NCBI GenBank assembly: GCA_041498975.1
Contig: JBGQJI010000138.1
Coordinates: forward strand, 1 to 6,445
From: Candidatus Methylomirabilis sp.
GTDB lineage: Bacteria > Methylomirabilota > Methylomirabilia > Methylomirabilales > Methylomirabilaceae
Direction of reading: 5' to 3'
DNA length: 6,445 nt
Shown here in pieces: positions 1,048 through 6,290 of the stretch. A program made the translations under genes and the position numbers. Numbering within the stretch: the first letter of the stretch is position 1; every line of letters starts with the position of its first letter. The notes beneath the pieces are model-generated. The model was given only the letters and a program-made list of their open reading frames with translations, did not search any database and was not told the origin of the DNA.

Positions 1048-1179
1048 TCCAAGGGTTCGCACGGTCCGGATCGTCCCAGGGTACGAACATGAACAATGCG
1101 GCATACGGAGATGCAGTCATGCCCCCTTGGAGTCCGCTCATCCCAGGGAGGCCTTGACCAAGAACCTCCCCTTCTTGAT
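1048..1179 (-). ncRNA. Candidate structured 5' leader or cis-regulatory RNA upstream of icd
   Basis: By-eye helices: 1172-1179/1157-1164, 1124-1131/1048-1055, 1117-1121/1088-1092 and 1081-1087/1056-1062. G-U pairs favour the minus strand. The element begins at the predicted transcription start. No known family was recognised. Confidence 0.35.
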
Positions 1180-1185
1180 GCGCGC

Positions 1186-1215
1186 AAGCTAGCATGTAGC
1201 GCGGACACCTGTCAA
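1186..1215 (-). promoter_or_regulatory. Putative sigma70 promoter for icd and its leader
   Basis: TTGACA (1215-1210), 18-nt spacer, TAGCTT (1191-1186), with an extended -10 TGn. Predicted start near 1179. Confidence 0.6.
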
Positions 1216-1341
1216 GCACTAGTTCCCGGCGGGTGCATCCTGAGTTAGATGCGATCACAGCCATTTGACGAGGCAAACCCGCCTGCGTCCTAGCCTATGA
1301 CAAGCGAGGTTCGAGTTCTATCATCCAGATCAAAAATCCCT

Positions 1342-1355
1342 ATGATCCATGTCAA
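1342..1355. promoter_or_regulatory. FNR/Dnr (CRP-FNR family)-like operator
   Basis: ATGAT-CCAT-GTCAA matches 8 of 10 positions of TTGAT-N4-ATCAA and lies in a locally AT-rich patch. Confidence 0.35.
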
Positions 1356-1543
1356 TATGGCATACAATTTACTCATCCCAGCCGCTTCAAAGGCGACTTG
1401 TCAGCGCAACGCGCAGGCCATCCGGAGACTGTTTGGCATATGCATAAAGGCGCCCGAGTATCCTGGTTGCTCCGTTTTCACTCTCCAAGTCGCGCCGAAC
1501 ACATGGAAATGGCGCCAGAGGATACAAGGGGGAACAGGACGCC

Positions 1544-1575
1544 GCCGTCAAAGACACAGGGGTGCTTTGACCGGC
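1544..1575. repeat. Imperfect inverted repeat / strong hairpin downstream of der
   Basis: GCCGTCAAAG-a-CAC-aggg-GTG-CTTTGAC-c-GGC. No poly-U tract on either side. Confidence 0.55.
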
Positions 1576-1649
1576 AGGCTGAATGAGCGGGACCGCACTA
1601 TCGAAGATATTGGCCCGGACCCGGCCCCTCCGCGCCCCCTGCACCCGAT

Positions 1650-1708
1650 CGGCCCTCCCCGCGCACCCGCGCCTTCTGCGCGGGTACCCGACCTCGAGGG
1701 GCGGGCCG
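1650..1708. repeat. GC-rich nested palindromic element (REP-like candidate)
   Basis: Outer arms CGGCCC-T-CCCC (1650-1660) and GGGG-C-GGGCCG (1698-1708). Inner perfect stem ACCCGCGC (1665-1672)/GCGCGGGT (1678-1685). Palindrome CGGGTACCCG at 1681-1690. Confidence 0.5.
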
Positions 1709-1790
1709 CCGCCCGTCATCGGACTCTCCCGCGGCCTGGGCTCACGCGTCGCCTCATACTCACTCCGCACAGTATGTAGCACCTGGCCGA

Positions 1791-3110
1791 TCACCCCCGC
1801 TTCCCTTTGAAGACCACACGAATCGGTGTGCCAACAAACCGGTACACGTCCCTGAGTTGGTTGACCAGATAGCGCCTGTACGGGACCCGCACGCCGGTTG
1901 GATCGCTGACAAACAGCAGAAAAGTGGGAGGAGGACCCGCGGCCTGCGTGGCATAGTGGAATCGAATCGGCCGTCTGCCATGCGAGGGTGGGGGATACTT
2001 ACGCACCGCCTCGCCGATGAGAGTGTTGATCTCAGGGGTCGGGATTCGTCGGCAGCGTGCTTGCGAGACGGCATTCAGCATTGGGAAGAGCGTCGAGACC
2101 CCGAGCCCCGTCAACGCGGAGACAAACGCGATGGGCGCGTAGTCCAGATGTCTCAGGCGGTCACGGATTTGTAGTGTAAGTTGCTGCTTTGCCTCCGCGC
2201 CTGGTGGCATCAGGTCCCACTTGTTTGCGACGAGAATCGCTCCGCAGCCAGCGTCCTCCACATAGGCGGCGATCTTGGCATCCTGCTCCGCGACCCCCTC
2301 CGGCCCATCTAAGAGGATGATGACCACGTCGCACCGCTGAATGGCCCGCAGCGCCCTGAGCACGCTGAATCGCTCCAGCGGCCATCTGACCTTGCCGCGG
2401 GACCGGAGACCTGCTGTGTCGATCAGGACGTAACTGGTGTCTTTATAGGTGAACGGGGTGTCGATCGCGTCCCTTGTCGTCCCAGGCTGCTCGCTCACGA
2501 TCACCCGATCCTCCCCCAGGATCCGGTTGACCAGCGATGACTTCCCCACATTCGGACGGCCCACCACCGCGACCCGAATGGCGCTCTTTTCCGGCTCATC
2601 CACTGTCGCCGGCAAGGATTCCACGATCAGGTCGGCTAACTCGGCGACTCCCATTCCGTGCTCGGCGGATATCGGAACCACTTGGGAAAATCCCAGGCGA
2701 AAGAACTCAGATGCCGAGAGCTCCTGACCCCCCCGATCGACCTTGTTTGCCACCACGACGATCGGCGCCTGGGCATCTCGTCGCAGCCGCCGGGAGATTT
2801 CCAGATCCAGGGGCGACACCCCCTCGCGGGCATCGACCACGAAGAGGATCAGGGCGGCGTCCTGGATAGCGCGCCGGACCTGGGTGACCACGAGGGCAGC
2901 GAGACCGGTCGCACCGGTCGGCTCGAACCCTCCAGTATCTCCCAGGACGAATGCCCTGCCCTTCCACTGGACCGTCGCGTACAATCGGTCTCTGGTCACG
3001 CCAGGCTCGTCATGGACGATCGCCCTTCGCCCTCCCACCAGCCGATTGAACAGGGTCGACTTCCCCACATTGGGGCGTCCGACGATCGCCACGATAGGAA
3101 GGGACATCAT
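1791..3110 (-). CDS. der: Ribosome biogenesis GTPase Der (EngA)
   Basis: Two tandem G domains (GRPNVGKS...DTGG...NKVD and GRPNVGKS...DTAG...NKWD) and a C-terminal KH-like domain (PPTFLLF...YRRYLVNQLR...FVGTPIR). RBS GAGGA at 3124-3120. The start could be 3110 or 3107. Confidence 0.98.
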   Translation of the reverse strand: MMSLPIVAIVGRPNVGKSTLFNRLVGGRRAIVHDEPGVTRDRLYATVQWKGRAFVLGDTGGFEPTGATGLAALVVTQVRRAIQDAALILFVVDAREGVSPLDLEISRRLRRDAQAPIVVVANKVDRGGQELSASEFFRLGFSQVVPISAEHGMGVAELADLIVESLPATVDEPEKSAIRVAVVGRPNVGKSSLVNRILGEDRVIVSEQPGTTRDAIDTPFTYKDTSYVLIDTAGLRSRGKVRWPLERFSVLRALRAIQRCDVVIILLDGPEGVAEQDAKIAAYVEDAGCGAILVANKWDLMPPGAEAKQQLTLQIRDRLRHLDYAPIAFVSALTGLGVSTLFPMLNAVSQARCRRIPTPEINTLIGEAVRKYPPPSHGRRPIRFHYATQAAGPPPTFLLFVSDPTGVRVPYRRYLVNQLRDVYRFVGTPIRVVFKGKRG

Positions 3111-3203: not shown

Positions 3204-3256
3204 GAGATGACGCGTGGTCGCTCGATCGACAGGAGCATCCCGCTGAAGGACCCACG

Positions 3257-3592
3257 ATGAGACTCGCAAACCTCTTTGTCAAGCCGGAAGCGCGGATCCT
3301 CTCCGATCGTGCCCACGCGCCTCAAACACATCGGCGGCGAAAGGTCCTGGAGGTCACAGGAATGCTGTGCGGTCTTTGAGCAGACCGGGTGAGGAGAGCC
3401 CTGGAGGGGCTCGAAGGCGTCACAATGGCCCGAGTTGAGCTGGAAACCGGGCGGGCGGTCGTGGACTACCGCGAAGGGACACTTGTCGACGGCCAAGCGA
3501 TCGAGGCGATTGAGGCCACGGTGGTGCTGCCAGGCCTGCGCCGCTGGCTTGCTATGCTCCCTCGGATGCGGCGGCCCACCGTCAACCGCTGA
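3257..3592 (+). CDS. Heavy-metal-associated (HMA) domain protein, CopZ/MerP-like; probable selenoprotein with a CxxU motif (UGA at 3377-3379 read as Sec41); 111 aa
   Basis: RBS GAAGGA (3245-3250) lies 6 nt before ATG 3257, in frame with the track ORF 3389..3592. Read-through gives MRLANLFVKPEARILSDRAHAPQTHRRRKVLEVTGMLCGL-U-ADRVRRALEGLEGVTMARVELETGRAVVDYREGTLVDGQAIEAIEATVVLPGLRRWLAMLPRMRRPTVNR. This fits the HMA pattern (l.v.GM.CxxC...v..aL..l.GV..a.V.le.g.a.V.y) on both sides of the UGA. Confidence 0.85.
3396..3412 (+). promoter_or_regulatory. Putative bacterial SECIS element
   Basis: Hairpin GAGCCC-UGGAG-GGGCUC (6 Watson-Crick pairs plus a possible U-G). The stem starts 16 nt after the UGA and the G-containing apical loop lies about 22 nt downstream. 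Confidence 0.65.
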
Positions 3593-4112
3593 GACGCTTT
3601 GCGCCCCGCAGAATGTACTCGAGTCCTGAGAAGATCGTCACTCCGGCCGTCACATAGGCCAGCGAGGGCAGGTAAGGCCCCACCCCGCCGGTCACATGGC
3701 CAAGCATCGTCCCCAGCACGGTTGCCAATTGCAATCCGGTTGTGAGCTTTCCCATTCGTGAAACAGAAACCGTCGTCTGGGACGTGGCGATATACACGAC
3801 CAAAAACCCGCCGATCAGGATCAGGTCCCGGCTGAGGATGATGATGAAGAGCCAGCGGGGGATCTCGTGCAGGTAGACCAGGGTCATAAAGGCGGCAAAG
3901 AGGAGCAGCTTATCCGCCAGTGGATCCAGGATCATCCCGAGCTCCGTGCGCTGGGCTCTCGAACGGGCGAAGAACCCGTCCAGGGCATCAGTGATTCCCG
4001 CCAGAAGAAACACCGCCACGGCAAGCCTCCAGAACCTATAGACCAGGAGGATCGAGATCACTGGCGCCGTCAGGATCCTCAAGATCGTGAGCCCATTGGC
4101 GAGATTCACCAT
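3582..4112 (-). CDS. pgsA: CDP-alcohol phosphatidyltransferase (PgsA/phosphatidylglycerophosphate synthase-like)
   Basis: N-terminal NLANGLTILRI, the family signature DALDGFFAR...G..LDPLADK, and several hydrophobic segments. The start is uncertain: 4124, 4112 (ATG), or 4109 (GTG overlapping the hflX stop as GTGA). Exact substrate cannot be determined. Confidence 0.85.
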   Translation of the reverse strand: MVNLANGLTILRILTAPVISILLVYRFWRLAVAVFLLAGITDALDGFFARSRAQRTELGMILDPLADKLLLFAAFMTLVYLHEIPRWLFIIILSRDLILIGGFLVVYIATSQTTVSVSRMGKLTTGLQLATVLGTMLGHVTGGVGPYLPSLAYVTAGVTIFSGLEYILRGAKRLSG

Positions 4113-5371
4113 CGCCAGGTCCATGCCGCAGCCGCTTCCTCAGACGCTCGATCGCCCGCAGGGGCGCCGCCCTCATCTGGTCTCAACTCCTCCTCTCCCT
4201 TTAACCGGCCTTGTCCTTCGGTCGGTATCCGCCCACGTGGCATTCGGCCAGACGCCTGTCCACCAGAGGCCATGAGAACGTGTCGCACGACCTCTCGCAG
4301 TCGGTCGAAGCCGTGGCCCGTAAGGGCAGAGACGGCGACACGTGGTATCGCGCTATCGGTCCCAAGGAACGACCGCTCGACACGGCCGGGCAGGAGATCT
4401 ACCTTGTTGAGGACCTCGATGATCGGCTTGCTGGAAAGGCCAAGCTCTCCCAGGATCGTGTCTACGGTCCGTTTCTGCTCGATCATCTGGGGGTGACTCG
4501 CGTCGATCAGGTGGAGGAGCAGATCGGCCTCGTCCAGCTCCTCGAGGGTGGCCTTGAACGCCGCGACCAATTGCGGAGGAAGTCGCCGGATGAATCCAAC
4601 CGTGTCGGATAACAGAAACGTGAATCCGTCCGGGGCGGTCACCCGGCGCAGGATGGGATCGAGAGTTACAAAAAGCGCGTCGTCCGTCCGGACGTCTGAG
4701 TGCGTGAGAGCATTGAAGAGGGTTGATTTGCCGGCGTTGGTGTACCCGACCAAGGCAACGATCGGGATAGCATGGCGGCGTCGAGGCCGCCTGAGCAGCG
4801 CGCGATGACGGCGGACCTTCGCGAGCTCGTCCCGGACCTTGGCCATGCGCCGGCGGATAGCACGACGGTCGGTCTCCAGTTGGGTTTCGCCCGGGCCCCG
4901 GGTCCCGATCCCGCCACCCAGGCGGGAGAGGTCGGTCCCCCTCCCCACGAGGCGGGGCAGACGGTAATCGAGCTGGGCCAGTTCGACCTGGAGCTGGCCT
5001 TCCCGGGTCTTCGCTCGCTGAGCGAAGATATCCAGGATCAACGAAGGACGGTCAATGGTTTTCCACCCGGTCAGGTCCTCCAGGCTTCGCTGCTGCGAGC
5101 CCGACAGTTCTTCGTCCACCACCACCAGGTCGATTTTCCCGTACCACCGCTCCTTGATCTCCTGAGCCTTTCCTTTCCCGATCAGATAACGCGGGTCTGG
5201 CGCGTCGCGCTCCTGCAAGATCGTTCCCACCACAGTCGCGCCGGCTGATTCTGCCAGACGACCCAACTCGGACAGAGAGTCCTCGGCCTCCCAGCGCGGG
5301 CTGCGCTTCCTGTGGAGCCCTACCAGCAACGCCCGTTCCCCCCCCTCATTCGACACTGCGCTTACGGTCAC
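4106..5371 (-). CDS. hflX: Ribosome-splitting GTPase HflX
   Basis: Motifs ELGRLAESAG, IGKGK, LILDIFAQRAKTREGQLQVELAQL, GGGIGTRGPGETQLETDRR, GYTNAGKST, LFVTLDP, DTVGFI, NKVD and VSA. The start is placed at GTG 5371 after AAGGGGG; GTG 5356 is an alternative and the track start 5422 is probably too far upstream. Confidence 0.96.
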   Translation of the reverse strand: MTVSAVSNEGGERALLVGLHRKRSPRWEAEDSLSELGRLAESAGATVVGTILQERDAPDPRYLIGKGKAQEIKERWYGKIDLVVVDEELSGSQQRSLEDLTGWKTIDRPSLILDIFAQRAKTREGQLQVELAQLDYRLPRLVGRGTDLSRLGGGIGTRGPGETQLETDRRAIRRRMAKVRDELAKVRRHRALLRRPRRRHAIPIVALVGYTNAGKSTLFNALTHSDVRTDDALFVTLDPILRRVTAPDGFTFLLSDTVGFIRRLPPQLVAAFKATLEELDEADLLLHLIDASHPQMIEQKRTVDTILGELGLSSKPIIEVLNKVDLLPGRVERSFLGTDSAIPRVAVSALTGHGFDRLREVVRHVLMASGGQASGRMPRGRIPTEGQGRLKGEEELRPDEGGAPAGDRASEEAAAAWTWRW

Positions 5372-6290
5372 TTTCCCCCTTTCGGCTTTCAAGGGCTTCT
5401 CGCCAGGCTCGGGCCCGCGCAAACTGTCGGGAGAGTCCCTCGCCGTCTCCGGCGCTGATCATCGCGCCGAGACGGCCAAGGGCGACCTGAAACCGCTCGA
5501 TCATCTCGAGGATCTTTCGGCGGTTGGCGAGACAGATGTCCCGCCACATGACCGGATGGCTCATGGCCACCCGCGTGAAATCTCTCAGGCCGCCTGCCGC
5601 GAATTCCTGCAGCTCCTCGCCGTCAGTCAGATCGAGGATCGCGCCCATCAGCGCGTAGGCGACGATGTGCGGCAGGTGGCTGACCGCAGCGAAGATCTCG
5701 TCATGTCGGTCCGCGCTCATCTCCAGCACCTCCGACCCGATCGCTTTCCACAGGGCGCGTACCCGTTCAACGGCGGCTGGATCGGTGGATCCGCCTGGGG
5801 TGAGGACGCACTTCGCACCGATAAACAGCTCGGCGGAGGCTGCGCTGGGCCCCGACCGCTCCCGTCCTGCAATTGGATGGCCCGGGACCGCGTTTCCGCT
5901 CGGCAGCAGTCGCTCCATTGCGGTCGCCACCGGCACCTTGACGCTTCCCACGTCCGTGACAACGGCGCCTGGCGCCAGATGGGGGGCGATCCGCTCGATC
6001 ATGGAGGAAATCGCGCCGACCGGCACGGCGAGAACGACCATATCAGCTCCCTCAACCGCAGCGACCGCGTCGGGAAAGGCCAGATCGACAAGGCCCAATG
6101 CAACGGCATGCGCGCAGTGGTCCGGGTCTTGGTCGGCCCCTCGGATCTCTTTCGCCAGGCGGCGGGCCCGGCAGGCGAGCCCCACGCTTCCGCCGATCAG
6201 GCCCAGACCGAGAATGGCGAGGCGCTGAAAAAGGGGGAGCGAAGGTGGCGCTGCAGCGTGCGGCGGCGCCGGCGTGGACCGAAAGGTCAC
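5346..6290 (-). CDS. tyrA: Prephenate/cyclohexadienyl dehydrogenase (TyrA family, no ACT domain)
   Basis: Rossmann motif GLGLIGGS, plus [26 protein letters not shown] and [10 protein letters not shown]. The GTG start overlaps the upstream stop (GTGA). Confidence 0.95.

Follow-up and report, generated by a model that had tools for sequence, protein, structure and literature searches.

The window, by which we mean the whole 6,445-nucleotide stretch of DNA analysed here, holds a reading frame with one internal TGA that we regard, with high confidence, as a genuine gene for a selenoprotein with the HMA fold, its metal being left unspecified (Table 1). The TGA itself is very probably read as selenocysteine (Sec), as judged from the sequence and its relatives. 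The original prediction of a Sec-containing protein at this place is thereby supported on two sides, by the conservation of the TGA codon and by the Sec machinery of the genome.

Table 1. Features of the selenoprotein gene and its surroundings, in window coordinates
Feature	Position	Strand	Remarks
Selenoprotein gene	3257..3592	+	111 codons including Sec41, plus terminal TGA 3590-3592; single frame, translated
Shine-Dalgarno-like GAAGGA	3245..3250	+	6 nt 5' of ATG 3257; read directly from the sequence
Cys38 codon TGC	3368..3370	+	First ligand of the predicted C-x-x-U site
In-frame UGA, putative Sec41	3377..3379	+	TGA in 21/21 genome relatives and 72/73 metagenome loci
SECIS-type hairpin	3396..3412	+	Stem 3396-3401/3407-3412, loop UGGAG 3402-3406; conserved across relatives
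N-terminal extension, residues 1-25	3257..3331	+	N5 and L6 invariant; predicted strand 11-19; block pLDDT 91 and 86
HMA (ferredoxin-like) domain, residues 26-90	3332..3526	+	VIA-align and Foldseek against solved chains
C-terminal tail	3527..3589	+	L91, P92 and R95 invariant in 14 sequences (V-L-P-x-x-R); Arg-rich end; predicted helix 93-99
der/engA	1791..3110	-	Neighbour
CDP-alcohol phosphatidyltransferase (pgsA-like)	3582..4124	-	Neighbour
hflX	4106..5422	-	Neighbour
Prephenate dehydrogenase	5346..6290	-	Neighbour

On translation from its ATG to the terminal TGA, the frame shows the internal TGA as its sole interruption; translation table 11 splits it at this point into 3257..3379 (40 residues) and 3389..3592 (67 residues, with a GTG start). 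Across the junction, the amino acid sequence is ...KVLEVTGMLCGL-U-ADRVRRALEGLEGV... and carries the metal motif GMLCGL-U, so that the TGA, at residue 41, occupies the position of the second metal-binding Cys of HMA domains, just as had been proposed. The proposed start codon with its putative ribosome-binding site, Cys codon, TGA and downstream ORF are likewise all where they had been placed, and the start is consistent with the relatives, in which the ATG lies 3-4 codons 5' of a conserved NL motif. With U entered as C, the Pfam HMA profile (PF00403, cut-off 24.8) matches the read-through protein at 43.1 bits, residues 31-87 covering positions 2-58 of 62. The 67-residue ORF alone reaches only 20.4 bits, below the cut-off, and is missing profile positions 1-17; as originally claimed, it lacks strand 1 together with the metal-binding loop.

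An assembly slip at the TGA was ruled out, as contigs from four other public runs, one of which is possibly the source sample, are identical over 3377-3379. TGA terminates all five complete neighbouring ORFs as well as the selenoprotein gene itself, and so serves as a normal stop codon here. A genome scan for TGA followed after 10-25 nt by GCCCTGNNNGGGC gave seven matches at six places, with a sensible frame in the selenoprotein gene only. All genes neighbouring the latter lie on the opposite strand, and its 3' end overlaps that of the convergent CDP-alcohol phosphatidyltransferase gene by 11 bases (3582-3592). On the minus strand, the pgsA-like gene and hflX overlap head to tail by 19 bases (4106-4124). 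Between hflX and the gene for prephenate dehydrogenase the overlap is 77 bases (5346-5422) if hflX does begin at the TTG listed for it; these overlaps suggest either that the genes form one operon or that hflX starts later.

When the read-through protein was compared with 41 related genomes, we obtained 13 further full-length matches, at 37-77% identity in this comparison, each with TGA at the same codon in the context G-[MF]-x-C-x-x-U. Together with the window gene they form an alignment of 14 sequences at 33-77% identity, and the profile built on it recovered 21 whole-profile matches (86-172 bits) from 251 genomes of the phylum, spread over five family-level groups. All 21 full-length relatives have TGA at the CxxU codon. 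The next-best profile match, at 58.9 bits, covers the generic HMA core only, as do those below it, which are mostly P-type ATPase N-termini. The denominators of 41 and 251 genomes, and that of 66 used below, include the unpublished genomes G027, G066, G075, G216 and G217, from which no carriers or sequences are reported. Within the window's genus the gene is present in seven of 20 genomes and absent from 13, and as eight of the latter are 99-100% complete, it is dispensable. In two members of the genus (L016 in G005 and L017 in G009) a TGA stands at codon 103, where the others have Arg (...LSRLP-TGA), making the protein nine residues shorter; we read this codon as an ordinary earlier stop.

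Around the TGA, residues are held constant while their codons change. In the metal loop of the 21 relatives, G, C and U are invariant, with M in 18 and F in three at the residue after the glycine. Upstream of the TGA, the invariant glycine at -6 is written GGG, GGA or GGC, and the cysteine at -3, invariant in 21/21, TGC (17) or TGT (4); downstream, the invariant Ala+1 uses four codons, Val+4 three and Val+28 four. Invariant residues with two to four synonymous codons on either side indicate that selection acts on the protein encoded by this frame, upstream as well as downstream of the TGA.

The original prediction would have failed had close relatives all had Cys, with the TGA peculiar to this assembly; this is not so. 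We scanned metagenomes with a DNA pattern derived from the invariant positions, in which the Sec codon was left as NNN and 10 hairpin bases were fixed. This gave 73 loci, all with the N- and C-terminal motifs of the family, although, because the pattern fixed those 10 bases, this set cannot test the stem core and is skewed to hairpin-bearing (Sec) forms. The codon is TGA in 72 of them and TGC in one (L076), whose motif GMVCNLC represents a Cys form with both terminal motifs of the family. A peptide pattern of the Cys form, run against 185,579 species genomes, returned 17 stretches and no family member; one of the 17 is a relative in the wider sense, a generic HMA protein of a Bacteriovoracaceae MAG at 29% identity. 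As this pattern had Cys at the Sec position, the scan could find Cys forms only. From these sequences, Cys forms of the CxxU family look rare, and the family itself was found here solely in one phylum (251 genomes) and in metagenomes.

A hairpin 3' of the TGA had also been predicted, and here the outcome is divided: a conserved stem of 5-6 bp at this place is found in the relatives, but single-sequence folding gives it no backing. The hairpin consists of GAGCCC, the loop UGGAG and GGGCUC, and begins 16 nt 3' of the UGA; in bacterial SECIS elements, the consensus has a G in the loop and an apical loop that follows the UGA at a distance of some 16-37 nt. In the 14-sequence alignment, 93% of cells are paired, compared to 32-71% after a shift of the 3' partner by 1-3 columns, and RNAalifold recovers the same helix from these sequences. 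For 61 distinct sequences the values are 92.9% versus 31-69%, with the reservation that 42 of these rows were pattern-selected, so that the two outer pairs are the informative ones. The stem pair 33:47 varies between GU, AU and CG, and the loop starts with UG in every sequence. Codons +7 (GCC), +8 (CTG) and +10 (GGG), whose bases form the stem, are invariant in 21/21; the stem codons spell A-L-E-G-L, a stretch that is also constrained at the protein level. Because four of the six pairs never vary, the case for the hairpin comes from synonymous-site invariance plus two covarying pairs. The fold of positions 3365-3440 taken by itself is no better than that of shuffled sequences (z -1.08; 27 of 200 shuffles fold equally well), and Rfam, searched in evalue mode over 3300-3500, returned no SECIS family, only two chance-level eukaryotic matches. 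The same hairpin, GGCCCUGGARGGGCU, occurs at the same place of the domain in both of the UxxU-type HMA genes examined in relatives, which argues that HMA selenoproteins of this phylum use it as their SECIS.

The machinery for Sec insertion, whose presence had been named as a check on the prediction, is complete in the genome, which is itself 84.9% complete: selB (378 bits, cut-off 242), selA (595, cut-off 268) and selD (399, cut-off 125) are all there, as is tRNA-SeC(tca), located on the selB contig. On this contig (C73), tRNA-SeC at 2759-2853 and selB at 9409-11295 are about 6.5 kb apart. The selD gene (L008; contig C199 of G000, 1054-1980, minus strand) also encodes a selenoprotein: a single in-frame TGA stands in the context GAG-U-ACK, and about 10 nt further on there is a 7-bp hairpin with the loop CCCGU. 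Across the order, selA is found in 58 of 66 genomes and in all 25 of high quality; it accompanies the CxxU gene in 18 of the 19 carriers within the order, the exception being a genome of 70% completeness.

AlphaFold2, run with the 14-row alignment, predicts the protein at a mean pLDDT of 77.7, falling low after residue 100, with strands at 11-19, 26-34, 55-61 and 66-72 and helices at 39-50, 78-86 and 93-99. The model has the beta-alpha-beta-beta-alpha-beta fold of HMA domains: residues 26-90 of the prediction superimpose on the domains of CopZ and MerP and on ATPase metal-binding domains over their whole length, with Z 9-10.7 and rmsd 1.0-1.6. The best structure match by VIA-align is 2qif_B (Z 10.7, rmsd 1.1, 64 residues), with 6ff2_A (CopZ) at 10.5 and 1osd_A (MerP) at 10.3. 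Solved HMA chains align to residues 26-90 only, leaving the N-terminal extension unmatched among them. By inspection of the sequence, the 111-residue protein has no hydrophobic leader or signal peptide. Apart from this protein, HMA domains were found in the genome only as a pair, at the N-terminus of a contig C2 ATPase with the architecture YHS-HMA-HMA-E1-E2.

From these elements the following course of events can be proposed. Judging from its anatomy, the hairpin at 3396-3412 would act as a bacterial SECIS during translation; SelB carrying Sec-tRNA(Sec) would bind it and deliver Sec at the UGA, and the ribosome would continue to the stop at 3590. The product, according to profile and fold prediction, would be an HMA protein of the CopZ/MerP type, in which Cys38-Gly-Leu-Sec41 stands for CxxC in the beta1-alpha1 loop. 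The Cys38 thiolate and the Sec41 selenolate could then bind one soft metal ion, and the protein may buffer this metal in the cytoplasm or hand it on. The usual ligand of HMA domains is Cu(I). Fold and motif point to soft-metal binding, most likely of Cu(I), with such a buffering or hand-on role, an assignment that we make tentatively and at somewhat less than even confidence. The selenolate may alter the affinity for the metal, as originally suggested.

The same selenoprotein might instead serve a different chemistry, with a reversible selenenylsulfide between Cys38 and Sec41. It would then be a small redox carrier or sensor rather than a metal chaperone, working for instance at the cytoplasmic face of a reductant pathway of the CcdA/TlpA type. 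The gene neighbourhoods of the carriers bear on this question. They depend on the lineage: in the window's genus the gene lies beside der and a pgsA-like gene, and in a second family groEL is found 5' of it in seven loci. In a third family, a CcdA-like DsbD_TM gene lies directly 3' on the same strand in all three carriers, with a TlpA-like redoxin between the two in two of the three, and elsewhere the gene follows a SCO1/SenC gene in one genome and has TPR and GalT-like genes beside it in two genomes. Both the CcdA/TlpA arrangement and the SCO1/SenC neighbour favour redox chemistry, and so do the motifs themselves, as CxxU and UxxC are typical of redox selenoproteins in the part of PMC13188914 available to us. 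The near-exceptionless retention of Sec would also suit catalysis better than simple binding. No copA, copper regulator or mer genes are adjacent at the window locus or in the carriers, and no conserved copper or mercury operon was seen among the neighbourhoods compared. Against redox chemistry stands that redox neighbours occur in just one of the five family-level groups of carriers, and that the HMA fold is, to our knowledge, known for metal binding and not for thiol-disulfide exchange. TlpA and Sco, moreover, function outside the membrane, while a signal peptide is missing from the protein considered here. It is the CcdA/TlpA arrangement and the near-absence of Cys forms that keep a redox role alive, as a less likely candidate. 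More speculatively, and with still less confidence, one can picture the CxxU family, which almost never reverts to Cys, as a cytoplasmic selenenylsulfide relay or sensor that possibly feeds CcdA/TlpA-type pathways, or as a handler of another soft element, and in neither case as a copper chaperone; it would use its Cys-x-x-Sec site, N-terminal strand and basic tail for this purpose, and would share its SECIS with exported UxxU HMA proteins of the same phylum, from which it was inherited.

Database records mirror the interruption of the frame, in line with the expectation that standard pipelines would truncate the gene. Of the 21 database proteins matched, none is full length or spans more than 59% of the read-through sequence, and the majority are the 67-residue fragment. 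Because the public records of the gene are either fragments of 63-72 residues that fall short of a complete domain or two odd entries (P0022 and P0070), the CxxU family has been invisible to annotation. In a search of 1.84 billion representative proteins, 21,425 matches at E<=0.001 were dominated by multi-HMA proteins, and P0070 alone was full length. In this protein of 156 residues, Gly occupies the Sec position (GMVCALGS) and Trp the place of the relatives' terminal TGA, and the nearest relatives of P0070 in genomes (50-61% identity) all have TGA; the record is either a translation under another genetic code or a real sense-codon variant. In P0022 (126 residues, from an 895-base contig), the C-terminal 37 residues match the C-terminus of the family, whereas the part N-terminal to them is unrelated and has PF21016 as its precomputed Pfam assignment; the record probably represents a chimeric contig or gene call.

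The Gly of P0070 would fit a read-through of UGA that does not involve Sec, either by a near-cognate tRNA inserting Trp, Cys or Arg or by local reassignment of the codon, and near-cognate read-through of UGA does exist in bacteria. We nevertheless consider this very improbable, given the complete Sec machinery of the genome, the Sec/Cys pair at the site, the use of TGA as terminator of all five neighbouring genes, and a nucleotide-constrained hairpin at SECIS distance that recurs in the double-UGA genes of the NF041115 type. Less credible still is that the TGA is a true stop, in a pseudogene or nonsense allele or with the 67-residue ORF (or the 40-residue peptide) as the real product: two ORFs under table 11, the 67-residue form in the databases and the normal use of TGA as a stop in this genome would agree with it, but a nonsense codon would hardly be kept in 21/21 relatives down to 33% identity amid synonymous change, its sole alternative would not be a Cys codon (TGC at L076), and the 67-residue piece is without strand 1 and the metal site and stays below the Pfam cut-off.

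HMA-type selenoproteins as such are already catalogued, as UxxU proteins (NF041115) and UxxC ATPases, and the CxxU family is a new family among them. None of 13 NCBIfam families reaches its cut-off for the window protein, and the same is true of the 14 aligned members, for all of which NF041115 (UxxU_metal_bind) is the best NCBIfam match. Like the window protein, members of NF041115 are small stand-alone HMA proteins with Sec in the metal loop, but the window protein scores 45 bits on this model versus a cut-off of 95 and contains a single Sec (CxxU) where those proteins have two (UxxU); the best of the 14 sequences reaches E 8.2e-19, which corresponds to about 68 bits when scaled from the row with 45 bits and 8.2e-12. 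The phylum contains exported UxxU HMA proteins of its own: two genes, L035 (G017:C31, about 1355-1525) and L030 (G025:C64, about 7691-7867), have two TGAs each, the motifs GMTUGAU and GMTUPFSU, respectively, and the hairpin GGCCCUGGARGGGCU, and the profile search of 251 genomes gave many further HMA matches with one or two TGAs. In contrast to these two examples, which start with a twin-arginine-like hydrophobic leader and have an ...AGF/AGY... end, the CxxU family is leaderless and has a conserved N-terminal strand and the basic tail V-L-P-x-x-R.

With the copper chaperones CopZ and Atx1 (6ff2, 2qif, 1cpz) the family shares the fold, the position of the metal loop, the stand-alone form and the lack of a signal peptide; these structures match the predicted model at Z 10.5-10.7 and rmsd 1.1-1.4 over 64 residues, with 30-38% identity. 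It differs from them by Sec in place of the second Cys, by Leu, Val or Ile between Met and Cys, by its additional N- and C-terminal elements and by not lying beside copA or a copper regulator, and on the CopZ models NF033795, NF033794 and NF047957 the window protein stays at 41-45 bits (41.4-44.5), below cut-offs of 85-95. MerP (TIGR02052; 1osd, 1afi) is similar in its HMA fold (Z 10.3 to 1osd_A), but the window protein scores 26.9 bits versus 92.55 on its model and has neither a signal peptide nor mer genes nearby. Sec at metal-binding positions is known from mercury-transport proteins (C/SxxU, PF02411; PMC13188914, as far as its accessible part goes), and the same part of this source lists a UxxU metal-binding protein, a UxxC cation-transporting ATPase (TIGR01525) and a C/SxxU mercuric transport protein, the ATPase being like the window protein in having Sec in a Cys-x-x-Cys-type motif of a heavy-metal protein. 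For the selenoproteins of the MerT/MerTP type (NF045683), the window protein reaches 17.8 bits versus a cut-off of 375, and it has no membrane part. In the P-type ATPases, Sec is the first ligand and the domain, which we take to be the N-terminal HMA domain, is fused to the pump, whereas in the window protein Sec would be the second ligand of a stand-alone domain; the genome's own pump (YHS, two HMA and E1-E2 ATPase domains) has no in-frame stop. A literature search gave no paper on a CxxU HMA family: PF00403 is absent from PMC13188914, a review of 2026, no HMA protein is found among 12 of its 14 mentions of CxxU, and the accessible parts of the 2022 review PMC9312934, the deep-Sep paper PMC12013277 and the preprint 10.1101/2022.07.06.499078 do not mention such a family.

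With the family described here, the catalogued UxxU and UxxC proteins are joined by a CxxU form that stands alone and has no signal peptide. The natural Cys/Sec pair, with the TGC of L076 on the one side, would make it possible to gauge the effect of a selenolate on soft-metal affinity or redox potential within a well-understood fold, and an NCBIfam-style model with a marked Sec position would allow the annotation to be corrected in at least 21 species genomes.
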